DNA of 56,056 bases, taken from contig MFKO01000002.1 of assembly GCA_001779595.1 (NCBI GenBank), forward strand, positions 148,311 to 204,366, read 5' to 3'. The stretch's first letter is position 1. Each line of letters opens with the position of its first letter. The notes beneath the pieces were generated by a model that was given only the letters and a program-made list of their open reading frames with translations, ran no database searches and was not told the DNA's origin. The DNA comes from Candidatus Kaiserbacteria bacterium RIFCSPHIGHO2_01_FULL_46_22. GTDB taxonomy: Bacteria; Patescibacteriota; Minisyncoccia; Phycocordibacterales; UBA918. The position numbers and the translations under genes are program-made. Positions 2 to 42,445 of this stretch are shown here, in pieces.

Positions 2-442
2 CGTAAAAAACCGACTTTCGAAATCAACGCAGGCGACATCGAAATGGAATACTCACGTGCTGGTGGCGCTGGCGGACAAAACGTAAACAAAGTGGAATCC
101 GCCGTCCGTCTCATTCACAAACCAACTGGTGTTGACGTGCGGAGTCAGTCAGAGCGTAGTCAGCTAAAAAATCGTGAGAAGGCGATGACTTTGCTTATTG
201 CTAAGCTGGAAATGATGCACGAAGAAGAAGAGGCTCGGAAGAATGCCGAAGTGCGCAAGAACCAAATCGGTACTGGAGACCGCAGTGAAAAAATTCGCAC
301 TTATAACTTTCCTCAAAGCCGAATTACAGACCACCGAATCAAGGAATCTTGGTACAACATCGAGGAGGTAATGGCTGGAAACCTTGACAACATTATTGAA
401 GCGATGCATAAAGCCGCTAGAGGGGAGTCTGTTGCGGAATAA
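2..442 (+). CDS. prfA: Peptide chain release factor 1, C-terminal part (5' truncated by window edge)
   Basis: [10 protein letters not shown] (GGQ) and the RF1-type [21 protein letters not shown] motif; frame open back to position 2. Confidence 0.93.
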
Positions 443-2713: not shown

Positions 2714-2786
2714 GCCGGCTTAGCTCAGTTGGTAGAGCAACGGTTTTGTAAACCGTAGGTCGTCAGTTCAAGCCTGACAGCCGGCT
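2714..2786 (+). tRNA. tRNA-Thr(UGU), 73 nt, discriminator U, CCA not encoded
   Basis: Full cloverleaf: GCCGGCT/AGCCGGC acceptor, GCTC/GAGC D stem, ACGGT-TTTGTAA-ACCGT anticodon arm, GTCAG-TTCAAGC-CTGAC T arm. Confidence 0.97.
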
Positions 2787-2817
2787 CTCATTTTTTTACG
2801 CCACTCCTTCACTCGGC

Positions 2818-4559: not shown

Positions 4560-5696
4560 ATGTCTCCACAAGTACAACCTCTATCATATCGTCACCGTTT
4601 TGTGTTTTTTTACTTTTTAACGGGAATTTTCGTACTGGCGCTACCATTTCTTTATCTCTATGCCACCGGCTATCGTCTTTCATCACTTGGCGGCAACTTG
4701 ATATCAACCGGAGGCCTGTATGTAGCCACCGAACGTTCTGGTGCCCAGATTTATATTGATGATGAATTAGTACGTGAGACACGCATCTTCCGTCGTGCCT
4801 TTTATGCGCAAGGACTAGATGCCAAGACGCATAAGATTTATGTTCAAAAAACCGGCCATCACACTTGGGTTAAAGAATTGCCTGTTTACGCACATATCGT
4901 CACCGAGGCACAGGCATTCAACCTGCCTCTAGTACCGCAAGTGCGGATAATTACCGAGTGGCAGACTGAAGCTGGTGTATCTGTATTAACTTCTATTTCT
5001 CCAATCTTAAAGAACGCTTCAAGTACTAATCAGGTACTTTATGAACCAAGAGCCTCAACCTCTACTCTGGCCGTAAATTCAGAGTACGTGCAGCTAATTT
5101 CATTATTTAAGGAAACCTCAAACTACACAGAAAGCGTACTGGACCGCGCACGCGCTAATATAACCGGATCAAGCGCAACATCGACAGCTACTACCACAAA
5201 AGAATGGCGCGGCGTACAGTTATACGAAAAAGATAACGAAGTGTATGCCGCTTTCGTGGGCAATAAAGAAGAGATGCCTTATTACTATTGTGCAGAAGCT
5301 TTCCCGACTTGGGAGGAATCAAACGCCACTTCTACTGCAACTGCAAAGCATAATCTTGCGCTCACGCACGGAGCTTTAGAGGCAGCGACAGAAGTCGACG
5401 AGCTTGATCTTCCTGTACAGGCCATCTCAAATGAGGTTGAGTGCGATCCTGTAATTAAAATCGATCGCAAGAATGAAACTATTTCGGATTTTGACTTCTT
5501 CCCAAACAGCACAGACTTAATGATTATTGCTACTGAAAGCGGAATCTACGTAATAGAGATCGATGACCGTTCCTGGCAAAACCGCCAGCCACTTTTGCTC
5601 GGAAATAATTTAACCTTCAAAGTTGTAGGTAGCTCTGTTTATGCTTATGATGGAAAAGTTATCTATCAGATTAGTATCAGTCAAAACTGGTTTTAA
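4560..5696 (+). CDS. Membrane-anchored PEGA-domain protein
   Basis: N-terminal TM, then GGLYVATERSGAQIYIDDEL...HKIYVQKTGHHTW (PEGA-like); Ser/Thr-rich extracellular stretches. Confidence 0.75.
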   Translation: MSPQVQPLSYRHRFVFFYFLTGIFVLALPFLYLYATGYRLSSLGGNLISTGGLYVATERSGAQIYIDDELVRETRIFRRAFYAQGLDAKTHKIYVQKTGHHTWVKELPVYAHIVTEAQAFNLPLVPQVRIITEWQTEAGVSVLTSISPILKNASSTNQVLYEPRASTSTLAVNSEYVQLISLFKETSNYTESVLDRARANITGSSATSTATTTKEWRGVQLYEKDNEVYAAFVGNKEEMPYYYCAEAFPTWEESNATSTATAKHNLALTHGALEAATEVDELDLPVQAISNEVECDPVIKIDRKNETISDFDFFPNSTDLMIIATESGIYVIEIDDRSWQNRQPLLLGNNLTFKVVGSSVYAYDGKVIYQISISQNWF

Positions 5697-5698
5697 TT

Positions 5699-6418
5699 AT
5701 GAATCTCAAACCTGGACATAAACATCCTTTGACGCAGATAATGGGCGAGGTAAACTCGATCTTTGCCGAGCTCGGGTTCGTCTTTGCTGATGGTCCGGAG
5801 TTGGAAGAGATTCGCTACAATTTTGACCTGTTAAATGTTCCAAAAGACCATCCGTCTCGGGATATGCAGGATACCTTTTACATTGAAGGTAAGCCGGACA
5901 ACGTACTTCGTACACACACTTCTCCAGTTCAAGTACGCTATATGGAAAACCACCAGCCGCCGATTCGCATTATTGTTCCTGGCAAGGTATTCCGCAACGA
6001 AGCCACAGATGCCACTCACGAGGCACAATTCTATCAACTAGAAGGTCTGATGGTGGACAAAAACGTATCGCTTGGACACCTTAAAGGCACCTTGGAATTC
6101 TTTTTTTCACGCTTCTTTGGAGGCAAGACTGAAATACGTTTGCGTCCTAGCTTTTTCCCATTCGTAGAACCTGGTGTTGAAGTGGATATGCGCCTGACCG
6201 GAGATGATGCCCCAGAAAAACTGCGAGGCCGCTGGATTGAAATTATGGGCGCCGGAATGGTGCACCCTAACGTGCTTAAAAATGCTGGTATTGATCCCAC
6301 TATTTACCAAGGGTTTGCTTTTGGTATGGGTATGGATCGTTTAGCAATGATGAAATATGGCGTCGATGATGTGCGGCTTTTTTATACTGGTGATTTGCGT
6401 GTAGTAAATCAATTCTGA
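5699..6418 (+). CDS. pheS: Phenylalanyl-tRNA synthetase alpha subunit (no N-terminal arm)
   Basis: HPSRDMQDTFY, LRTHTSPVQ, FPFVEP and GFAFGMG motifs. Confidence 0.97.
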   Translation: MNLKPGHKHPLTQIMGEVNSIFAELGFVFADGPELEEIRYNFDLLNVPKDHPSRDMQDTFYIEGKPDNVLRTHTSPVQVRYMENHQPPIRIIVPGKVFRNEATDATHEAQFYQLEGLMVDKNVSLGHLKGTLEFFFSRFFGGKTEIRLRPSFFPFVEPGVEVDMRLTGDDAPEKLRGRWIEIMGAGMVHPNVLKNAGIDPTIYQGFAFGMGMDRLAMMKYGVDDVRLFYTGDLRVVNQF

Positions 6419-6420
6419 TT

Positions 6421-8310
6421 ATGAAAGTTTCCTACAATTGGTTAAATAAATATTTTGACGGCAAGCTTCCTGAGGCAGAAGCCGTGGCTGATGCTTTCAC
6501 TTTCCACGCTTGGGAAATTGAGGATATTGAGAAGGTAGGTAACGACACTCTGCTCGATGTAAAAGTTTTACCTGACAAAGCAATGTGGGCTCTCTCGCAC
6601 CGAGGCATAGCAAAAGATCTATCGGTGATTTTAAATATTCCTCTCGCTAAAGATGCGTTGGCAAATAAGGTCTCGCTGGGAGCAGCCTCAACAATCGGCA
6701 TCGTCCTAGAAACAGACAACTGCCGCCGCTTCGTGGCGGCACACATCACCGGCGTAAAAGTCGGTCCATCGCCAGAGTGGTTGAAAACTGCGCTTGAGAC
6801 TATTGGTCAAAGAAGCATCAACAACATTGTTGATGCCAGCAACTACGTAATGTTCGACTTAGGACAGCCTTCGCACGCTTTTGACGCTAGGCACATTGGT
6901 GCGGAAGGTTTTAAAGTACGACACGCTAGAGACGGTGAAAAATTAACTGGGCTTGATGGAATTGAATACACCTTTTTACAAACCGACACAGTAATTGCTC
7001 GCAATGACACTGATGAAATACTAAGCATCGCTGGACTTAAAGGTGGACAGCATTCAGGCATTAGTGATGACACAACCGATGTTATTGTCGAAGTCGCCAA
7101 TTGGGATCCTGTTACCACACGGCGGACGGGGCAAAGGCTCAAACTGCGCACTGATGCTTCGTCTCGTTACGAGAATGGTGTCGTGCCAGAAATGGTACCT
7201 TACGGTTTAAGTACGGTAATTGATCTTATTCTTGAAATCGCCGGTGGGGAAGTCACGAGTTATAGCGAAGTGGTCAACACTACTACGGTGCTGGGGCAGG
7301 TTAACGTATCACTCACCAAGATAAATAACGTACTTGGTCTTTCTCTAACTACAGATGAAGTATCAACCATTTTAGAGCGTTTTGGCTGGCAGTACCGAGC
7401 AAACAACGAAGAATTTTTAATAACGCCGCCATTCGAGAGAACGGACTTGGTTATTGGAGAAGACGTAATAGAAGAAATTGGTCGCATCTACGGATATCAA
7501 CACATCACTGCTGTTGTGCCCGATCCAGTGCCACTACTAGATATCAATAAGCGTTTCTATTATTCGGAAGTTGTTCGTGACAGCCTTATTGCGTTTGGCT
7601 TTTCTGAAATATTTACCAGCTCTTTCCGAGCTAATGATGAAATAAAGATCGCCAATGCCCTCGCCTCTGATAAGGGTTACTTGCGCAGTTCACTCAAAGA
7701 CAATCTTAAGGAAGCACTTCAAAAAAACGCTCCAAACGCAGATCTTTTAGGAATTAGGCAGATTCAAATTTTCGAAATTGGCACTGTTTTTAATTCATCC
7801 GGAGAATCTCTAATGCTTTCAATTGGAGTACAAAGTCCGTCTGGTTACAAAGCTAAATCCGATGAGCCTATAATCACCGAGGCTTTGCAGTCATTAGGCG
7901 AACAATTAGGACACATGGTGCAAGAAAAGAGCGAGGGAGGAATTGTAGAGATTAATCTTGGTACCCTGATCGATCAACTGCCTTCGGTATCAAATTATCA
8001 AAATTTTAAGCAACCTTCTGATGTTACTTACCGACCTTTTTCGAGTTATCCGGCAATAGTGCGAGACATTGCAATGTGGGTGAGCGGTGAGGAAGACGAA
8101 ACCAACATCGTTTCAATCTTGAAGGACACAGCTGGTCCATTATGTGTCCGTACAACCTTGTTTGACCGCTTCGAAAAAGACGGACTCACATCCTATGCCT
8201 TCCGACTTGTTTTTCAATCAACCGATCGTACTTTAACTGACAATGAAGTGAATTCGGTAATGGACAATGTGTACGAGTCTGTCAGGGAACGCAATTGGGA
8301 AGTGCGTTAA
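6421..8310 (+). CDS. pheT: Phenylalanyl-tRNA synthetase beta subunit (no B2 OB fold)
   Basis: MKVSYNWL start, RSINNIVDASNYVM, EEIGRIYGY, C-terminal anticodon-binding domain RDIAM...DRTLTD. Confidence 0.96.
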   Translation: MKVSYNWLNKYFDGKLPEAEAVADAFTFHAWEIEDIEKVGNDTLLDVKVLPDKAMWALSHRGIAKDLSVILNIPLAKDALANKVSLGAASTIGIVLETDNCRRFVAAHITGVKVGPSPEWLKTALETIGQRSINNIVDASNYVMFDLGQPSHAFDARHIGAEGFKVRHARDGEKLTGLDGIEYTFLQTDTVIARNDTDEILSIAGLKGGQHSGISDDTTDVIVEVANWDPVTTRRTGQRLKLRTDASSRYENGVVPEMVPYGLSTVIDLILEIAGGEVTSYSEVVNTTTVLGQVNVSLTKINNVLGLSLTTDEVSTILERFGWQYRANNEEFLITPPFERTDLVIGEDVIEEIGRIYGYQHITAVVPDPVPLLDINKRFYYSEVVRDSLIAFGFSEIFTSSFRANDEIKIANALASDKGYLRSSLKDNLKEALQKNAPNADLLGIRQIQIFEIGTVFNSSGESLMLSIGVQSPSGYKAKSDEPIITEALQSLGEQLGHMVQEKSEGGIVEINLGTLIDQLPSVSNYQNFKQPSDVTYRPFSSYPAIVRDIAMWVSGEEDETNIVSILKDTAGPLCVRTTLFDRFEKDGLTSYAFRLVFQSTDRTLTDNEVNSVMDNVYESVRERNWEVR

Positions 8311-13632: not shown

Positions 13633-15342
13633 ATGAACAACATTATTAAACTTTCGATCATTTTCTCGTTTGCATTTTTGGTTATGGCTGCATTGCCTAC
13701 CAACGCAGTAAATGCTTACGGTACTAGTGGTTGTGGCGGCTGTGAAGGTGGTGGTGAAAGTGACGGCGGCGAAAAGCCTGATTGGCCTACCACTACTCCA
13801 AAGCCAGCTGAATGTAAGTTCCTAGAAGCTAACAAGACACAACTTCCTGCTGGAGGTGGTGATGTGAAGCTTTCTTGGAAGGCTGTTAACGCCAAAAGGG
13901 TAACTCTTACCGGCTTCGGTGACGTTAAGGCTGAAAACACTCGAACTGTATTCGTTAAGGATGACAAAACCTTCACCCTTACAGCTCATGGTGCCAATGG
14001 CAACGACGACTCTTGTACTGTAAAGATCAAGGTTGAAGAGCCAAAGGAGGTTGCAGTTTGTAAGTTCCTAGAAGCTAACAAGACACAACTTCCTGCCGGA
14101 GGTGGTGACGTAACCCTTACTTGGAAGACTGTAAACGCTAAAAACGTTTCAATCTCAGGTATCGGTGATGTTGCAGCTGAAGGTTCTAAGACTGTATCTG
14201 TAACCAGCACTAAGACCTTTACGCTTACCGCTAAGGGTGCTGGTGGCAACGACGCTTGTGTAGTTACTATCAAAGTAAAGGATGAACCAAACGACAAACC
14301 TGCCGTTTGTGAATACCTTACTGCTAACAAGACCCGTGTTGATGAGGATGGTGAGAACGTGACTCTCTCTTGGTCTACCAAGAATGCCACTTCAGTTTCT
14401 ATCTCTGGCATCGGCAACGTTGCTAAGAGTGGATCTAAGACTGTCTTCGTTGACAGTAACACCACTTTCACTTTGACAGCTGAAGGCACTGACGGTGATG
14501 ACACTTGTGCTGTAACTATCAAGGTTGATGAGGACCACGAAGGTCCAACTCCACGTTGTGATTACTTCCGTGTTGATAACGATGACGATATCGAGGTAGG
14601 CGACCGAGTTACTCTTGAGTGGGAAACTACCAATGCTGACGACGTTCGCATCAACCAGGGTATCGGATCTGTTAGCGACGATGGTTCAAAATCCGTAACA
14701 ATTGATGATGAATACACTGTATTCACATTGACTGCCCGCAATCTAGATGAAGACGAGGAGGATACTTGTACTGTCACTGTCCGCGCTGATGAAGACGAGG
14801 AGGATGATGAAGACGCTCCACGTTGTGATCTAGAAGTATCGAAGAGCCGCGTCAACCGTGGCGACCGAGTCACCCTTTCTTGGGAGACTACCGATGCTGA
14901 CCGAGTTCGCATCACTGACGATCGTGGCAACACCATCGTTAATACCACTAAATCTAGTCTAATGGATGGTGAAGTTGATTTGATCATCAACCAGACCACC
15001 GAATTCACTCTTAATGCTCGTGGCGATGACGGTTCTCGTACCTGCCGCGTGACTGTTAAGACTGACGACGATATCGCAGTTTATGAGAAGCGTGATCAGG
15101 GTTATGTTATTGCATTGACTCAGGTGCCATACACCGGATTTGAAGCAGGACCTACATTGACTCTTATCTTCTATGCGCTGTTGACCCTTTGGGCTCTCTT
15201 CACTGCATACATCTTGGTTATCAAGAAAGGTTCTATCCTCGGCTACTCTCTATACAAGGGTGCTGTAGCAAACGACACTGACCTTGAGAACCGAAAAAAA
15301 GTCGAAGCGCTGGTGGCGAAGTACACGGGACGCAGTTGGTAA
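13633..15342 (+). CDS. Surface protein with five Cys-bracketed Ig-like repeats and VPYTG sorting signal (putative sortase substrate)
   Basis: Signal peptide, CGGC, five ~82-90-aa repeats, VPYTG (15124-15138) followed by TM and KK. Confidence 0.85.
   Translation: MNNIIKLSIIFSFAFLVMAALPTNAVNAYGTSGCGGCEGGGESDGGEKPDWPTTTPKPAECKFLEANKTQLPAGGGDVKLSWKAVNAKRVTLTGFGDVKAENTRTVFVKDDKTFTLTAHGANGNDDSCTVKIKVEEPKEVAVCKFLEANKTQLPAGGGDVTLTWKTVNAKNVSISGIGDVAAEGSKTVSVTSTKTFTLTAKGAGGNDACVVTIKVKDEPNDKPAVCEYLTANKTRVDEDGENVTLSWSTKNATSVSISGIGNVAKSGSKTVFVDSNTTFTLTAEGTDGDDTCAVTIKVDEDHEGPTPRCDYFRVDNDDDIEVGDRVTLEWETTNADDVRINQGIGSVSDDGSKSVTIDDEYTVFTLTARNLDEDEEDTCTVTVRADEDEEDDEDAPRCDLEVSKSRVNRGDRVTLSWETTDADRVRITDDRGNTIVNTTKSSLMDGEVDLIINQTTEFTLNARGDDGSRTCRVTVKTDDDIAVYEKRDQGYVIALTQVPYTGFEAGPTLTLIFYALLTLWALFTAYILVIKKGSILGYSLYKGAVANDTDLENRKKVEALVAKYTGRSW
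13813..14096 (+). repeat. Intragenic repeat: 38-bp exact match between repeats 1 and 2
   Basis: TGTAAGTTCCTAGAAGCTAACAAGACACAACTTCCTGC at 13813-13850 and 14059-14096 (246-nt period). Confidence 0.9.
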
Positions 15343-15504: not shown

Positions 15505-16719
15505 TTAAGCAATCGTCTTCTCCGAAATTTCCTTTTTCAACTTGGCAACTAAGGACTGGGGGTCTAGCTGTTCCGAACCGCCGGCTCGTGATTCGAGAGT
15601 TACATTTCCAGCTTCAATCTCCTTATCACCAATCACAGCAAAGTAGGGGAGTTTGTTCTGCTTAGCATTCCTGATCTTCTTACCCAATGATTCATTTGCG
15701 TCATCCAGAACGACACGAACACCAGCCGCTTTAAGCTCTGCAGCAATTTCTTTTGCTCTCTCGTGATGAGCCTCGCCAACCGGCAAAATAGCGATCTGCT
15801 CTGGCGCAAGCCAAAGCGGAAAAGCGCCGTTGTAATGTTCTATCAAGACAGCAGCACAACGTTCCAACGATCCTGCAATAGCAGCGTGGATCATCACGAT
15901 TCTTTCCTTCTCACCCTTTTCGTTAATACAAGTAAGGTCAAAACGCTCTGGAATGTTCATATCCAACTGAATAGTCGCCACCTGCCACTCGCGACCTGCG
16001 GCATTACTACCCATAAAGTCCAACTTTGGACCATACAAAGCCGCTTCGCCTGGCCCTTCAAAGAAATCAGCTCCACGCTCTTCAGCAATCGTACGAAGTT
16101 CACCCTCTGCCTGGTCCCAAATTTCTGGGGTACCTAGGTATTTTTCCGGTGCAGCAGGATCACGGAAAGAAAGACGTACTCGGAGTTTGAAACCAAAAGC
16201 CTTATAAAATGAATCGATGATGTCCCAGATTTTAAGGAACTCCTCTCTGACCTGACTGTGACGACAGAAAACGTGCGCATCATCTTGAGTTATCGACAAA
16301 ACACGGGTTAGACCGCCAAGCTCACCTGACTGTTCGTCACGGTATACCATCGTAGTTTCAGCATAGCGCTGTGGCATCTCTCGGTAGCTGTGTGGTTTAC
16401 GATCAAAGATCTGTGTGTGATGAGGGCAATTCATCGGTTTAAGTGCATATTCACGACCCTCTCTCGAGGTAATCCGAAAAAGCTCGTCCGCAAACTTGTC
16501 CCAATGACCACTACGTTCATATAGGTCTTTCTTAGTTATGTGCGGAATAGTTACTCTTTGATAACCGTACTGCTCACGCAACTGCCAAATGAAATTATCG
16601 ATCTCTTGGCGCAAAACAGTACCTTTCGGAGTCCAAAGAGGTAAACCTGGGCCAACCAACTCAGAGAATGTAAACAGGTCTAATTCACGCCCTATTTGTC
16701 TATGATCTCGTTCTTCCAT
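15505..16719 (-). CDS. thrS: Threonyl-tRNA synthetase lacking N-terminal editing domains
   Basis: DHRQIG start, KPMNCPHH, YRDEQSGELGGLTRV, LYGPKLDF, IHAAIAGSLER; C-terminal anticodon-binding domain. Confidence 0.97.
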   Translation of the reverse strand: MEERDHRQIGRELDLFTFSELVGPGLPLWTPKGTVLRQEIDNFIWQLREQYGYQRVTIPHITKKDLYERSGHWDKFADELFRITSREGREYALKPMNCPHHTQIFDRKPHSYREMPQRYAETTMVYRDEQSGELGGLTRVLSITQDDAHVFCRHSQVREEFLKIWDIIDSFYKAFGFKLRVRLSFRDPAAPEKYLGTPEIWDQAEGELRTIAEERGADFFEGPGEAALYGPKLDFMGSNAAGREWQVATIQLDMNIPERFDLTCINEKGEKERIVMIHAAIAGSLERCAAVLIEHYNGAFPLWLAPEQIAILPVGEAHHERAKEIAAELKAAGVRVVLDDANESLGKKIRNAKQNKLPYFAVIGDKEIEAGNVTLESRAGGSEQLDPQSLVAKLKKEISEKTIA

Positions 16720-16741: not shown

Positions 16742-16898
16742 AAAAACCGCCCGAGGTACAAAGATGACTTAATGTCTTTGTACCTCGGGCGGTTTTAGCC
16801 GCGGTTCCACCGAGATTTATTACTTCATTAGAGGGCAGATTAGCCGCAGGTTGCGGACGGGATTCCGTTTGTGGTTGGTGGCCACAACAATCTCTGAT
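16742..16898 (-). ncRNA. T-box riboswitch (transcriptional) controlling thrS
   Basis: T-box AAATCTCGGTGGAACCGCG; antiterminator CTCGG-UGGAACC-GCGG-cuaaaa-CCGC-CCGAG; overlapping 18-bp terminator plus U tract; short Stem I with ACC in loop. Confidence 0.88.
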
Positions 16899-16902
16899 TT
16901 AG

Positions 16903-19900
16903 CTATGATACCGCCGATACTTCCGATGTCAACAATTTGGCGTTCTCAAGCATTACGGTAGGTTCACCACTTCTGATCTGCAGACGACCTTTAATAGCCA
17001 CACAAGCTGACGGTCTAAGCACTTCTTGTAAAGCACGATAAGTTTCAGGAAAGGCAGTCACTTCGATTTGATCGGTCTTATTAACTAGTTGGATAAACGC
17101 CATTTTTTCACCCTTCTTGGTTAAAAGTTCTCTCATTGTTCCCACCATTCCAGCGGTTACTACTGGAATACCGTTGCGTCCATCTTCTCTAATCACTTTA
17201 ATTGTTGGTCGCTTTTTTAACTCCTCAGCAAAACTGTCCAACGGATGACCAGAAACATAGACACCGAGCAGGTCTTTTTCCCAGGCGAGCTTTTGTGCCA
17301 TTGGAATTGGCGCAGACGGGTTGAGAGATAATTCAGATATAGAGGTACCGCCAAAGAGCGAGTCTTGTGAAGATTCTGCAGCAGCCTGCGCGTTTTTGTT
17401 AAATTCAAGCAAAGTTTCTAAGTTTGCAAACATCAAACCTCGCTCTTTGAAACGGTCTAGTGCGCCAGTTTCTATCAGCGCCTCCAATGACTTCTTGTTT
17501 AAGTTTCGCTCACGCACACGGGTTAAGAAATCTGACAGGGAATGGTATTGCCCATTGGTCTTTCGTTCCTCAATGATTGAATCAGAAATGCCCGCACCAA
17601 AGTTTTTTATAGTAGTGAGACCAAAGCGAATCTTTTGTGTACCAGGTACCACAGAAAAGTCCGCGAAAGATTCGTTGATGTCCGGTGGCAATACTTCGAT
17701 ACCCATTCGTTCACACTCGTGAATAATTTCTGAGATCTTCTCAGTGTCACCAGAGTCTGCTGTTAGGACGGCTGACATATACTCAACCGGGTAGTTGGCC
17801 TTCATATAAGCCGTCTGGTAGGCCACACGACCATAACTGGCGGCGTGAGCCTTGTTGAATCCGTAAGCAGCGAAAGGTTCAATTAGTTTCCATAACTGTT
17901 CGGCCTTCTGGCCCGATAACTTGCCGTATTCCACGAAACCTTTGAGCAACTTTTCCTTTTCAGCTTCCATCACCTCAGGAATCTTCTTTCCCATTGCTTT
18001 ACGGAGTTTGTCAGCATCAAGCCATGAGTATCCAGCCAAAGTAATGGCAGTCATCATCACGTCATCTTGGTAGGTGATCACGCCGTAAGAGCGGTCCAGA
18101 ATCGTTTCGAGTCGAGGATCCATATAATGAATCAGGGCCGCGTTATGTTTGCGCTCAATGTACTGCGGGATCGACTCCATCGGCCCTGGACGATACAACG
18201 CCACCATGGCGTTGATGTCGTGGATAGAGGAAGGTTGTAGCTGCTTTAGGAAAGAAGTCATTCCTGAACCGTTGAGTTGAAACAAACCCATCGTTTCACC
18301 GCGAGCCAGCATTTCAAAAGTTAGTTTGTCATCCAGAGGAATGTTTTCAATATCTACCTCTATGTTACGAATTTTCTTCACTCGCTTCACCGCATCAGCC
18401 AATATGGCTAGGTTTTTGATACCAAGAAAGTCAAATTTGAGAAGACCAACACCGTCTTCACCGACAGAGCGCATTTCATACTGGGTAATCAGCTTGCCGG
18501 TTTTCGGGTCAGGCTGTACTGGTACAAATCGATTCAAAGGCTCAGGTGCAATCACCACACCGGCAGCGTGAACTCCTAGGTGTCTGACTCTACCTTCAAT
18601 TTGTTTTGCCAGATCAAGAACCTCGCGCATTTCTGGCTCGCTTTTGTACATCTTGGCCAACTCTGGCTCAATCTCAAGAGCCCGCTTGATGGTCATTGGA
18701 AAACCCTGACTGCCGATCGGAATCAACTTGGCAATACGATCTCCAGTCGCGTAAACATGACCAAGCGCGCGCGCCACGTCACGCACTGCCGCGCGCGCCA
18801 TCATCGTACCGAAGGTGCCAATCTGGGCCACTTTGTCCTCACCATATTTCTGCTTGGCGTATTCAATAATTTCATCACGACGATTATCGGCGAAGTCCAT
18901 ATCGATATCAGGAGCGGAAGGACGTTCTGGATTGAGAAAGCGCTCGAATGGAAGCTTGTATTCAAGTGGATCCACATTGGTAATACCGAGCACGTAGGTA
19001 GTCAAAGAACCGGCCACCGAACCTCTAATAGTAGTGAGAATTCCTCGAACCCGTGATTCTCGAAGCAAATCTCCCACCACAAGGAAGTACTTTGCGTAAC
19101 CTTTCATCTTGATCACTTCCAATTCGTAATTCAAACGCTCCTGAACTTCTTTGTCTTCTAAGGACAGTCCGCGCCAAGTTACACCTTTATAGGCCAAGTC
19201 TTTGAGTTCATCATCAGGTTCTTTGCCACTTTCAATAATGTAGTTGGGGAAATACCAAGTTGTTCCGATCGGAATATCTACATTGCAGGATTCGGCTATT
19301 TTGACCGTATTGCTAACCGCCTCTGGCACATCGAGAAATTTCTCCTTTATGGCAGCTGTTGTAACGAATGAGAAGTCTTCATTGCCATCAGCACTGGTAT
19401 CGACTACTCCGCCATTTTGTATCTTAAGCAAAGTCTCGCGTGCCACCCGATCTTCAGGGTTAATGTAATAAACATCATGCGCGGCTACCAGTGGAACGTT
19501 GTTAACCTTAGCCAAGGCTTTGATGCGCTCCTGATTTTCTCCGTGGTCTAAAAGCTCTGGATGATTGGTGACCTCTAAATAACAATCTTCGCTGTAAATG
19601 TGGCGATACCAATCCAGTTTTTCTCCGGCCCGTTCCTGATCATTGTTTTTAAGAGACTGTGCTACTTCTCCAGCAAAGGATGGCAAGATCGCTATCAAGC
19701 CCTCTTTGTGTTTTTCGAGTAATTCCTGATCAAGACGTGGTTTGTAGTAAAAGCCATCCACGAAGGAACGAGTAACTAGTTCGATTAAGTTCTGATAGCC
19801 AACGTTGTTTTTGGCGAGTAACACGAGGCGACTGCGTGGTTTATCAATTCCAGCATCTTTATCAAAGCGGGTACGAGGGGAAAGGAAAGCGTCTAGGCCA

Positions 19901-20109
19901 ATTATTGGTTTTATATCTTCCTTTTGACAGGCCTTATAGAAATCAATCATTCCGTAAAGTGCACCATTGTCAGTAAGAGCTAACGCATCTTGACCGTCCG
20001 CCTTTGCAGCGTAGGCAAGTTCTTTTGGAGTTGGTAGCGCGTTTAGGAGGGAATAGTGAGAATGGACGTGTAAGTGAACAAATTCAGTCTGCAGCCGCTT
20101 TTCTGACAT
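16903..20109 (-). CDS. dnaE: DNA polymerase III alpha subunit
   Basis: PHP HLHVHSHYSLL, RGSVAG, PDIDMDF, GFNKAH; no intein-sized insertion. Confidence 0.98.
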   Translation of the reverse strand: MSEKRLQTEFVHLHVHSHYSLLNALPTPKELAYAAKADGQDALALTDNGALYGMIDFYKACQKEDIKPIIGLDAFLSPRTRFDKDAGIDKPRSRLVLLAKNNVGYQNLIELVTRSFVDGFYYKPRLDQELLEKHKEGLIAILPSFAGEVAQSLKNNDQERAGEKLDWYRHIYSEDCYLEVTNHPELLDHGENQERIKALAKVNNVPLVAAHDVYYINPEDRVARETLLKIQNGGVVDTSADGNEDFSFVTTAAIKEKFLDVPEAVSNTVKIAESCNVDIPIGTTWYFPNYIIESGKEPDDELKDLAYKGVTWRGLSLEDKEVQERLNYELEVIKMKGYAKYFLVVGDLLRESRVRGILTTIRGSVAGSLTTYVLGITNVDPLEYKLPFERFLNPERPSAPDIDMDFADNRRDEIIEYAKQKYGEDKVAQIGTFGTMMARAAVRDVARALGHVYATGDRIAKLIPIGSQGFPMTIKRALEIEPELAKMYKSEPEMREVLDLAKQIEGRVRHLGVHAAGVVIAPEPLNRFVPVQPDPKTGKLITQYEMRSVGEDGVGLLKFDFLGIKNLAILADAVKRVKKIRNIEVDIENIPLDDKLTFEMLARGETMGLFQLNGSGMTSFLKQLQPSSIHDINAMVALYRPGPMESIPQYIERKHNAALIHYMDPRLETILDRSYGVITYQDDVMMTAITLAGYSWLDADKLRKAMGKKIPEVMEAEKEKLLKGFVEYGKLSGQKAEQLWKLIEPFAAYGFNKAHAASYGRVAYQTAYMKANYPVEYMSAVLTADSGDTEKISEIIHECERMGIEVLPPDINESFADFSVVPGTQKIRFGLTTIKNFGAGISDSIIEERKTNGQYHSLSDFLTRVRERNLNKKSLEALIETGALDRFKERGLMFANLETLLEFNKNAQAAAESSQDSLFGGTSISELSLNPSAPIPMAQKLAWEKDLLGVYVSGHPLDSFAEELKKRPTIKVIREDGRNGIPVVTAGMVGTMRELLTKKGEKMAFIQLVNKTDQIEVTAFPETYRALQEVLRPSACVAIKGRLQIRSGEPTVMLENAKLLTSEVSAVS
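16905..16932 (-). promoter_or_regulatory. Sigma70 promoter for the T-box/thrS transcript, inside the dnaE 3' end
   Basis: TTGACA(16932-16927)-16bp-TATCAT(16910-16905). Confidence 0.65.
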
Positions 20110-21523: not shown

Positions 21524-22423
21524 ATGGCAAACCGGCACCTCTCACGCTCTATCGTTCTTCAAACGCTGTTTGAGTGGGATCTGAATAATCTTGAAAAGAA
21601 GGAAGTAAAAGACGTCTTGGTACGCAATATTGAAGAGTTTGCCAAGAACAAAAGTGACCAGCCTTTTATGGAGCGTCTGATGGATGGCATCCTGGGCAAA
21701 CAAAAGGAATTGGATTTGGTTATAGAAAAGGCGGCTCCAGAATGGCCAATTGATCGTATTTCTCCAGTTGATCGAAACATTCTTCGACTTGGTTTGTATG
21801 AGCTTCTTTTTGCAGATCGTGGCGAAGTACCGGCTAAAGTAGCCATCAACGAATCCATCGAACTCGCAAAGCAATTTGGCGGTGAAAACTCCAGTCGATT
21901 CGTGAACGGTGTTCTAGGTGCTGTCTATAAAGAAATAGGAGAACCAGGCAAGGAAGAGCAGAGCAAAAAGAAGGCACCGACTGTTCCATTTGAAAAGATG
22001 CTGGTTATACGTCTGGCTGGTGCTGTTGTGTATGCAGTCCATGATGGAGAAATGTACTTGGCGCTTGTACATGATATTTTTGGTCACTGGACTCTATCGA
22101 AGAGTAAGGTTGCTGAAGACGAAACAGAAGAGCAGGGTGCCACCAGAGCATTACGTGAGGAGATTGGCTTAGATATCCAAATTGAGGCCAAGCTTGGCAG
22201 TAACGAGTACGTGGCAAACAAACCAGAAATTGGAAAACACCGAAAACAAGTATCGTACTTTTTAGCCAGTGCACCTTATGTCGATCTTAAAATGGAGAAG
22301 AAAGGGGGATTAGATGACGCTAAATGGTTTAAGGTGGCTGAGATACTTGACCTCAATTTTTATGAGGATATATTGCCTATTGTCACGAAGGCCGTAACCA
22401 TGTTGGTTGCGAAAAAAGTTTAA
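21524..22423 (+). CDS. nusB: NusB fused to a C-terminal Nudix-fold domain
   Basis: RHLSRSIVLQTLFEW, DRNILRLG, VAINESIELAK..FVNGVL; then a Nudix-like REEIGL box. Confidence 0.9.
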   Translation: MANRHLSRSIVLQTLFEWDLNNLEKKEVKDVLVRNIEEFAKNKSDQPFMERLMDGILGKQKELDLVIEKAAPEWPIDRISPVDRNILRLGLYELLFADRGEVPAKVAINESIELAKQFGGENSSRFVNGVLGAVYKEIGEPGKEEQSKKKAPTVPFEKMLVIRLAGAVVYAVHDGEMYLALVHDIFGHWTLSKSKVAEDETEEQGATRALREEIGLDIQIEAKLGSNEYVANKPEIGKHRKQVSYFLASAPYVDLKMEKKGGLDDAKWFKVAEILDLNFYEDILPIVTKAVTMLVAKKV

Positions 22424-41293: not shown

Positions 41294-42445
41294 TTACACA
41301 TGCGGATCGTGGGGCGCCCAACCGATCAGGAAGAGCGACAAGAACCCGACCATATAAGCGATCGGAATGATCCACGACTCCCTCAGGAACACAGCTGTAT
41401 TTCTGATGCGAGGATGGTCGTTCGAGACGGCAACGCCGGCCGAAGATCCGAACCACATCATTGATCCGCCAAAGCCAACGGCGTAGGCAAGCCAGCCCCA
41501 GTCATATCCACCCTGATCCAAGGCAAGCTTAGTCAGAGGAATATTGTCGAACACGCTGGACACGAAGCCTAGCGCGAAGACCATTGAAGGGGAGGCGGGA
41601 GGAAGGGACTTCACCGGCATCAGGCTTGCGGCCAGTACCAGCGAAAGCAGAAACACTGCTCCCTTGGTAGCCTTAGGCACATGATGCCAGTTCGGATTCC
41701 GGTACCACATAGTGCCGATAATGGCGATCCAGACGCCAACAGCGGGGAAGTCCAGCAAGATGTTGGTAGACACAGTTCCTACCAAGATCAGGGCCACTAC
41801 GGCAAGACTGCCGAAGTCGATTGGGCGCTTTTCTGAAGCGTCCTTTGTTATGCGATGCCGCCGGTCCTGCCAAATTGACAAGGGAACGCCAAACACCAAC
41901 AGAGCGACGAATGACGGCAGATATGCATGAGTGACGTCCACCCACGATACACCGTCGATCCACATCATAGTTGTTGTGGTATCGCCGATCACGCTACCGG
42001 CGCCGCCGGCGTTGCTGGCAGCGACGATACCGGCCAGATAACCGACAGTGACCTCGCCTTTATACACGACCGTTGCGATCGACGCACCGATCATGGCAGC
42101 TGCGATATTGTCGAGAAAACCCGACATCGCCCAGACGATAAAAAGGAGTACGAAGCCACCTTTCCAATCGTCCGGCAAAATTGCCGGTACTCGTTCCGCC
42201 AGTCGAGACTGGCGGAAGTGATCGGCCAAGATCTCGAAACCAACAAGTAGCCCGAGCAGATTGGCGACCAGTCGCCATTCATGCCCGAAATGACCGAGCA
42301 GATCCACGTCTTGTGCAAACAACAGTTTGTACAAGACCACAGTGATTAGACCACCGATAGCGATCCGTACATTGTGATGATGGAAGATAGCCACCCCAAT
42401 CAGAGTAGCTGTAAAGATGACGAACTCAAACGGTATTATAGGCAT
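41294..42445 (-). CDS. IT-superfamily (NhaD/ArsB/citrate-transporter-like) permease
   Basis: SGFLDNIAAA, ASNAGGAGSVIGDTTTTMMW, SSVFDNIPLT, GGSMMWFGSSAGVA; multi-TM. Confidence 0.82.
   Translation of the reverse strand: MPIIPFEFVIFTATLIGVAIFHHHNVRIAIGGLITVVLYKLLFAQDVDLLGHFGHEWRLVANLLGLLVGFEILADHFRQSRLAERVPAILPDDWKGGFVLLFIVWAMSGFLDNIAAAMIGASIATVVYKGEVTVGYLAGIVAASNAGGAGSVIGDTTTTMMWIDGVSWVDVTHAYLPSFVALLVFGVPLSIWQDRRHRITKDASEKRPIDFGSLAVVALILVGTVSTNILLDFPAVGVWIAIIGTMWYRNPNWHHVPKATKGAVFLLSLVLAASLMPVKSLPPASPSMVFALGFVSSVFDNIPLTKLALDQGGYDWGWLAYAVGFGGSMMWFGSSAGVAVSNDHPRIRNTAVFLRESWIIPIAYMVGFLSLFLIGWAPHDPHV

Follow-up and report, generated by a model that had tools for sequence, protein, structure and literature searches.

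A reduced, transcription-attenuating T-box with a loop-displayed threonine codon, predicted upstream of thrS in Patescibacteria

The T-box is the model case for the recognition of one structured RNA by another. Capture of the tRNA is held to need the platform of a long Stem I in the leaders acting on transcription, or a Stem II S-turn together with a pseudoknot in the short leaders acting on translation; apical-loop specifiers belong to the leaders with a short Stem I, and Stem III was called indispensable in the same review of T-box structures (PMC7583486). The class II model of the T-box database TBDB was searched only in Actinobacteria and in class I matches with a truncated Stem I (PMC7778990). 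The Patescibacteria have tiny genomes and cannot make amino acids, their regulation has been called virtually unknown in a 2024 perspective, where riboswitches appear only as possible tools (PMC11665869). In this article we analysed a stretch of 56,056 nucleotides (nt) from Candidatus Kaiserbacteria bacterium RIFCSPHIGHO2_01_FULL_46_22 (contig MFKO01000002.1; called the window below), which carries between dnaE and thrS a leader of about 157 nt whose elements are all read on the minus strand. Its comparison with related leaders suggests that it is very probably a transcription-attenuating T-box specific for tRNA-Thr and represents a structurally reduced subclass.

With the canonical T-boxes the leader and its relatives share the T-box sequence (GGUGGNACCGCG) with a 7-nt UGGN-ACC bulge and helices A1 and A2, a competing intrinsic terminator and an aminoacyl-tRNA synthetase gene as the regulated gene. 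The codon is likewise followed by a purine and has preferably C at its third position, most members have the RAG and AA purines around Stem III, and the basal pair of A2 is G-U, the described steric sensor, in 64 of 114 leaders (G-C in the other 50). In contrast to canonical class I (RF00230), the leader has no long Stem I, no kink-turn (K-turn), no internal specifier loop with an S-turn, no AG bulge and no distal loop forming the double T-loop on the tRNA elbow. Its codon stands in the 7-nt apical loop of a 6-bp hairpin (P2), which together with hairpins P3 and P4 and the closing helix P1 makes up a four-way junction, and about 10% of the members, the window among them, are devoid of Stem III as well.

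The actinobacterial translational ileS T-box (ultrashort Stem I; class II in TBDB; structures from Mycobacterium and Nocardia) resembles the leader in the apical-loop specifier on a short hairpin, in the lack of an elbow-binding platform and in having the same discriminator domain. It differs, however, since here P3 and P4 are plain variable hairpins inside P1, the amino acid is Thr and not Ile, and the output is an intrinsic terminator with a U-run instead of the sequestration of a ribosome-binding site. The Escherichia coli thrS translational operator, a mimic of the tRNA-Thr anticodon arm bound by threonyl-tRNA synthetase (ThrRS), is similar in being a thrS leader with an anticodon-arm-like hairpin and feedback control of ThrRS; nevertheless that operator shows an anticodon and binds a protein, whereas the Patescibacteria leader shows a codon and has a tRNA 3'-end sensor and a terminator. 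As an analogy only, the complexes of tRNAs with complementary anticodons may also be mentioned: in these, 3 bp join a pair of 7-nt loops in which pyrimidines stand 5' and a purine stands 3', and such anticodon-anticodon loop complexes are far stabler than free trinucleotide duplexes.

In order to find relatives independently of the leader, 80 thrS loci, one per species-level genome, were collected by ThrRS protein similarity alone. Nearly all of them carry the label of a Patescibacteria lineage (Kaiserbacteria, Adlerbacteria, Parcubacteria, Paceibacterota and others) or of an unclassified bacterium, apart from a few automated labels of another kind. The leader stands directly upstream of thrS in 17 of the 80 loci (Table 1) and is absent from 63, thus it is real but patchy. 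The closest thrS loci lie in metagenome-assembled genomes of Patescibacteria/Kaiserbacteria, the best ThrRS matches being 84% and 83% identical, which agrees with a first-pass annotation of this DNA, where a T-box in a genome of the Candidate Phyla Radiation (CPR) had been proposed. Metagenomes were scanned with a scaffold pattern (CRGARATYG, 33-63 nt, CYAATCYG, 22-52 nt, GGTGGNACCGCG) which put no constraint on the codon hairpin or on the base matching the discriminator; at least 118 stretches were obtained, and the 117 distinct leaders among the matches listed form the basis of the family counts. Viral contigs gave no match to the scaffold pattern. The leader is more than a product of chance, since more than 130 independent loci show this arrangement and its helices covary.

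In the listed leaders the 19 nt after the first block make up a 6-bp stem and a 7-nt loop, the loop being CUACCAA in 78, CCACCAA (the form of the window) in 8 and a minor variant in the rest. Of the loop codons 112 are ACC and 4 are ACG, L125 being the outlier; all the 116 ACC/ACG leaders have a purine after the codon, and the loop conforms to YY-ACC/ACG-R-M in 116 of the 117. The flanking positions of the loop vary while the codon shows only synonymous change. The window displays ACC (16879-16877) in the apical loop of P2, followed by the purine A (16876), that is, a codon matching the amino acid of the regulated gene and then a purine. The downstream gene was identified as thrS by blastp in 103 leaders; the other 15 downstream products are mostly cut at the contig end and show only the N-terminus of the editing domain (HTLAHLLAAA), and 13 leaders run off the contig ahead of any gene. 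The earlier expectation that the loop codon tracks Thr is borne out by these counts, the readable downstream genes being thrS.

No leader of this scaffold with the codon of another amino acid was met in the codon-free scan, among the matches listed. A T-box core ahead of other genes was not found in 1.35 Mb of Patescibacteria DNA, and neither was a T-box ahead of pheST in the window. Judged from these sequences, the leader subclass is apparently specific to thrS. One contig (L116) contains two complete Thr T-box leaders (565-670 and 1488-1619), about 900 nt apart and each with its own promoter and terminator. The second precedes thrS, and the first precedes an open reading frame (ORF; 692-1363, or from the ATG at 861) without a Pfam match, perhaps the sole case of this leader ahead of a gene other than thrS. 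Several lookalikes were discarded: in L064 and L070 the motif (UGGAACC / UGGGACC) is inside the full-length thrS coding region, and the T-box-like cores of L111, L145, L159 and L179 are inside coding sequence.

Covariation was computed on an alignment of 114 leaders. For P1, P2, A1 and A2 together 97.2% of the cells are paired, as compared to 29-39% when the partners are slid by 1-3 columns, and the covariation score is 0.431 versus 0.162 in shuffles, with none of 500 shuffles reaching 0.431. In the terminator 90.3% of the cells are paired, 18 of its 22 pairs change on both sides, and the score is 0.505 versus 0.205 in shuffles. That the hairpin, the antiterminator and the terminator all covary supports the core reading of the first-pass annotation.

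The whole 5' domain comprises 61 nt from P1 to P1, of which the codon hairpin P2 takes 19 nt. In P1 99.8% of the cells are paired; its second pair, the sole free position, covaries (A-U in 105, G-C in 7, G-U in 1 and A-C in 1 of the aligned leaders), and the first pair is U-A in place of C-G in the related locus L073. All six pairs of P2 change on both sides, with 97.4% of the cells paired and 61 distinct 5' strands among the listed leaders. P3 is throughout the family a hairpin of variable sequence and length abutting P2 directly, and P4 has in the relatives often a stem of 2-5 bp and in several of them a GAAA loop. Anchored parsing with a shuffle control was used here instead of a covariance model, and MAFFT was inconsistent on P3, P4 and Stem III; the exact parse into two hairpins (P3 and P4) was obtained in 77 of 117 leaders versus 6.7 +/- 2.5 in shuffles. 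At the junction, two arrangements come into question for the near-invariant GAUUG and CUAA: pairing of UUG with UAA following a GA bulge, or an internal-loop motif. We take GAU/UAA to resemble the UAA/GAN internal-loop motif, a lead only, for which the literature search gave nothing.

The known tRNA-capturing devices were looked for in this domain. An informal check of the junction against the K-turn consensus gave no fit, and neither an S-turn nor an elbow-binding platform was found in the 5' domain. No conserved complementarity between loop and linker was seen by eye, although no formal pseudoknot search was made. A Stem II with an S-turn and a Stem IIA/B pseudoknot (F-box) has no counterpart here either: P3 and P4 are short, variable, without a conserved internal loop, and enclosed by P1.

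In its description of the 5' part the first-pass annotation had correctly recognized the 6-bp hairpin UUGUGG/CCACAA with the loop CCACCAA showing ACC, which is present and covarying in the family, and the small hairpin CCGCA/UGCGG, which is P4 (16856-16844). Its short Stem I was right as to the loop-displayed codon; it was missed, however, that the hairpin is one arm of a four-way junction. The proposed base of that stem, GAUU (16892-89) with AAUC (16864-61), had to be given up, since the two strands are complementary in the window, yet AAUC is the loop of the separate hairpin ACGG/CCGU (P3) and the pairing has no counterpart in the relatives. The second Thr codon suggested there as a candidate specifier, ACG at 16868-66, is paired in the P3 stem and unconserved. 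A P1 register proposed by RNAalifold (AGAUUG/UAAUCU) was also rejected: the window would allow it, but 14 uncompensated mismatches arise at the free R/Y positions, and only CAGA/UCUG covaries.

The minimum free energy (MFE) fold of the whole leader was set aside too. It pairs the 5' half of P2 and its loop (GUGGCCACC, 16869-16887) with the T-box stretch GGUGG..CCGC (16803-16814) and rests on the self-complementarity of ACC and GGU; since the sequence of the P2 stem varies freely, this fold cannot be conserved. The T-box sequence itself contains GGU, the complement of the Thr codon ACC. The stem part of the pairing is unconserved, and a contact of the codon with the T-box of its own leader is conceivable when no tRNA is bound. 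A further observation concerns the locus L151, where ARAGORN reads the reverse complement of the T-box 5' domain (138-213, plus strand) as a tRNA-Thr(GGU), taking the complement of P2 as the anticodon arm (loop UUGGUAG) and that of P3 as the D arm. This call is probably due to chance; it illustrates the anticodon-arm-like nature of P2 and could cause false tRNA annotations.

In the discriminator part the T-box sequence GGUGGAACCGCG is exact at 16811-16800, a search with GGTGGNACCGCG matches once in the 56-kb window without a mismatch, and this T-box sequence (AGGGUGGNACCGCG) forms a 7-nt bulge between helices A1 and A2. The antiterminator described in the first-pass annotation as a textbook one (CUCGG, UGGAACC, GCGG-cuaaaa-CCGC, CCGAG) is thus present where it had been placed, with an exact T-box. 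Three pairs of A1 change on both sides in the alignment, the inner pairs of A2 (C-G and G-C) are invariant, and the bulge has UGGA in 114 and UGGG in 3 of the listed leaders.

In canonical discriminators Stem III has RAG and AA purines on its two sides (PMC7583486, PMC11297988). Most relatives fit the consensus AAGnGC-Stem III-GGAAnCUCGG, i.e. these purines stand around Stem III, while the linker of the window is read as AAGUA-AU-AAAU-CUCGG without Stem III, an absence that the earlier model overlooked. By the RNAfold criterion no Stem III hairpin is present in 9 of 117 leaders including the window, and by eye in up to about 13. L002, L089, L092, L104, L109, L164, L178 and L187 belong to this subgroup; L088, whose ThrRS is only 46% identical to that of the window, has also no Stem III by eye. 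The loss of Stem III is common to the window and the distant L088, therefore it is conserved and not an accident. Stem III loops are usually regarded as variable. Many of the Stem III-bearing members (e.g. L049, L098, L116, L145) have nevertheless a loop with GGCAUACC / GCAUAC, which may be a tertiary contact; no conserved partner sequence was seen for it in the 114-leader alignment.

The 5' strand of the terminator overlaps the 3' half of the antiterminator (A1 and A2), hence the two structures are mutually exclusive; their evaluated energies are -38.5 kcal/mol and -11.9 kcal/mol, respectively, and the fold of the whole leader has a z-score of -7.1 versus shuffles. A run of at least four T follows the terminator in 111 of 114 leaders. 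In the window the U-run ends 22 nt ahead of the thrS ATG (16719), as the first-pass annotation had it, whereas the stem, given there as 18 bp, is 22 bp long in the MFE fold.

Table 1. Positions of the leader elements and associated genes in the window, and related thrS loci that carry the leader
Feature	Position	Strand	Details
Sigma-70-type promoter	16905..16932	minus	-35 TTGACA 16932-16927, 16-nt spacer, -10 TATCAT 16910-16905; 11/12 matches
P1, 5' strand CAGA	16893..16896	minus	pairs with UCUG 16839-16836; closes the four-way junction
Junction strand GAUUG	16888..16892	minus	near-invariant, between P1 and P2
P2, specifier hairpin	16869..16887	minus	stem UUGUGG 16887-16882 / CCACAA 16874-16869; loop CCACCAA 16881-16875
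P3 hairpin ACGG-AAUC-CCGU	16857..16868	minus	includes ACG and AAUC of the first-pass annotation
P4 hairpin CCGCA-ACC-UGCGG	16844..16856	minus	CCGCA 16856-52 with UGCGG 16848-44
CUAA and P1, 3' strand UCUG	16836..16843	minus	CUAA 16843-16840, UCUG 16839-16836; conserved
Single-stranded linker CCCUCUAAUGAAGUAAUAAAU	16815..16835	minus	purines AAG...AAA present, no Stem III between
Antiterminator	16784..16814	minus	A1 CUCGG 16814-10 / CCGAG 16788-84; A2 GCGG 16802-799 / CCGC 16792-89, loop CUAAAA
T-box bulge UGGAACC	16809-16803	minus	7 nt, between A1 and A2
Intrinsic terminator	16742..16796	minus	22-bp stem 16796-16775 with 16764-16743, 10-nt loop, U-run 16746-16742
dnaE	16903-20109	minus	DNA polymerase III alpha, NF004226 1157 bits
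thrS	15505..16719	minus	404-aa ThrRS; TIGR00418 486.5 bits, model positions 170-564 of 565
tRNA-Thr(UGU)	2714..2787	plus	discriminator U73
Leader-bearing loci			L001, L002, L021, L068, L074
Leader-bearing loci, thrS of ~580 aa including the editing domain			L023, L032, L037, L040, L044, L049, L053
Leader-bearing loci			L024, L045, L054, L071, L073

The predicted promoter of thrS is wholly embedded in the last codons of the dnaE coding region, as claimed earlier for TTGACA-16-TATCAT, and the final T of its -10 hexamer is at the same time the T of the dnaE stop codon TAG (16905-16903). The hairpins, the antiterminator, the bulge and the U-run were also re-read on the minus strand at the positions given in the first-pass annotation. 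Transcription is predicted to start at about 16898, 2 nt ahead of P1. A promoter with at least 8 of 12 matches was found upstream of 113 out of 115 family leaders, and in 103 of these 113 the -10 hexamer ends 7-11 nt ahead of P1. Because the -10 is regularly just upstream of P1, the whole 5' domain should be transcribed.

Standard models recognize little of this. With Rfam 15 at gathering thresholds only the tRNA was matched in the window. RF00230, applied permissively, covers only 16785-16817 (model positions 183-216 of 219) with 17.5 bits versus its gathering cut-off of 93, a score that also sets the leader apart from canonical class I, and it gave no gathering-level match in 20 other leader-bearing loci. 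The earlier proposals that Infernal with RF00230 would return a partial match limited to the antiterminator and that the standard model misses the leader were therefore right, and Rfam-based annotation pipelines overlook it.

The following mechanism can be proposed from the above arrangement. Transcription would start about 2 nt ahead of P1 and the 61-nt 5' domain would fold as a four-way junction of P1, the codon hairpin P2 and the small variable hairpins P3 and P4. The 7-nt loop of P2 (YY-ACC-A-M, in the layout of an anticodon loop) would pair through ACC with the GGU anticodon of tRNA-Thr in a loop-loop contact, and UGGA of the T-box bulge would pair with the free 3'-UCCA of the uncharged tRNA. 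The weak antiterminator, stabilised by the tRNA, would then block the terminator and allow read-through into thrS; charged tRNA-Thr could not seat its 3' end, so the terminator would form and transcription would stop before the ATG. Of this scheme, tRNA binding and charge sensing are inferred, as are the geometry of the loop-loop contact and the part played by the junction. The junction probably fixes the angle and the distance between the codon loop and the discriminator, replacing Stem I, Stem II and the pseudoknot.

As to the ligand, the bulge UGGA is complementary to U73 of tRNA-Thr(UGU) of the window, whose discriminator U had already been noticed, and the tRNA-Thr genes of both the window and L104 have U73. 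In the related loci the sole call of a tRNA-Thr(GGU) was false, being the antisense strand of a T-box.

Several observations weigh against this interpretation. The gene of the predicted ligand, tRNA-Thr(GGU), was not seen in the 56-kb window, which is only part of the genome, and tRNA-Thr(UGU) mismatches ACC at the wobble position. The P2 loop of the window has C, not U, at the position of the U-turn, unlike the tRNA-tRNA anticodon complexes; A2 has G-C at the sensor pair and not G-U; and Stem III is absent from the window variant though the structural review calls it indispensable (PMC7583486). The features said to be necessary for tRNA capture, i.e. the long Stem I elbow platform, or the Stem II S-turn with the pseudoknot, are absent too, which leaves fast and tight binding unexplained (PMC7583486). 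Finally, the conservation of the blocks in the metagenome set was mostly imposed by the search pattern; the junction blocks are nevertheless well conserved, since they are kept in the 17 loci retrieved by protein similarity.

Some of these points bear on other explanations of the leader. An effect of the T-box on translation, alone or in addition to transcription, as in the short-Stem-I leaders of actinobacterial ileS, is improbable: apical-loop specifiers have so far been described only in translational T-boxes (PMC7583486), but the long GC-rich hairpin and its U-run are conserved and covarying, the terminator ends 22 nt ahead of the ATG, and its stem leaves uncovered these 22 nt, where the ribosome-binding site would lie. 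It is slightly less probable still that the leader is a decayed relic of a T-box which senses no tRNA and acts as a constitutive partial terminator. The missing Stem I, Stem II and, in the window, Stem III would suit such a relic, as would the G-C instead of the sensor G-U and the absence of the leader from 63 of the 80 related thrS loci. Decay is, however, at odds with a codon, bulge, junction blocks and helices kept across ThrRS proteins of about 43-97% identity with many compensatory changes, and with a Stem III-less variant which is itself conserved between the window and L088.

Two further possibilities share the lowest rank, both of them highly unlikely. The ACC loop with the junction could be an operator bound by ThrRS for autogenous control, the T-box-like part being a plain attenuator: the E. 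coli thrS is autoregulated via a tRNA-like operator, the P2 loop has the format of an anticodon loop, and the regulated gene is thrS wherever it is readable. ThrRS, however, reads the anticodon bases G35 and U36, whereas the loop shows the codon ACC; moreover, the 12-nt T-box sequence, the 7-nt bulge, A1/A2 and the RAG/AA purines make up a sensor of the tRNA 3' end, and the bulge base matches U73. The specifier might alternatively be elsewhere than in the P2 loop, either ACG (16868-66), a Thr codon followed by a purine, or a Ser triplet (UCU/UCC) after UAA in CUAA-UCU-G, which imitates the canonical 'GAA-codon-purine' layout (we take UAA-UCY-G to be like the 3' side, and AGAGA like the 5' side, of the canonical specifier loop); but ACG is base-paired in P3, which has no conserved sequence, and the Ser codon at the canonical 'UAA-NNN-R' position is ruled out as UCY is paired with RGA and its Y/R change is compensatory (105 A-U, 7 G-C), L024 has UUU there with the pairing kept and the codon lost, the UGGA bulge fits U73 of tRNA-Thr and not the G73 of bacterial tRNA-Ser, and the downstream gene is thrS wherever it can be read.

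The regulated gene and its neighbourhood have some features of their own. In the ThrRS of the window Pfam finds only the tRNA-synt_2b and HGTP_anticodon domains, without the TGS and editing domains, and the rest of the 56 kb does not encode a separate editing domain either. Most of the T-box-controlled relatives are about 580 aa long and have the editing domain; the short form of ThrRS is found downstream of 14 of 108 Stem III-bearing leaders, and also in the window and in L002. The ORF at 13633-15342 (plus strand, 569 aa) is convergent with thrS; this ORF and the one at 41294-42445 (minus strand, 383 aa) have no Pfam match at the curated cut-off. Without any leader, pheS and pheT lie at 5699-8310 (plus strand), pheS being short (239 aa, core domain only) and pheT 629 aa long, and a 378-aa ORF without a Pfam match (4560-5696) precedes pheS by only 2 nt. 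In another ORF (21524-22423, plus strand, 299 aa) a NusB domain (7-136) is followed by a NUDIX hydrolase domain (168-282).

The core of the first-pass annotation, a T-box with a very short, loop-displayed Thr specifier driving an intrinsic terminator, is supported by the comparative evidence. Beyond this, it seems fairly likely that the leader represents a third structural class of T-boxes, confined to Patescibacteria thrS, in which a hairpin loop resembling an anticodon loop and held by a four-way junction would read the anticodon with no elbow platform, S-turn clamp or pseudoknot, in some members without Stem III, and with a co-transcriptional terminator as output. No earlier description of such a leader was found in the full-text literature on T-boxes and riboswitches in CPR, Patescibacteria, Parcubacteria and metagenomes; subscription journals were outside this coverage, so an earlier description is possible. 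As far as we found, this is the first riboregulator defined for the Patescibacteria/CPR.

It should be emphasized that the family is abundant and strongly conserved while the form present in the window is without the features held necessary. Because none of these supposedly required features is found in it, the leader offers a natural minimal system for the sensing of tRNA identity and charge. If the proposed reading is true, a long Stem I is not required of transcriptional T-boxes, contrary to the accepted rule, and the identity and the charge of a tRNA can be sensed by a much smaller RNA than has been thought. The leader is also a candidate for a native tRNA-responsive switch in genetic tools for Patescibacteria.

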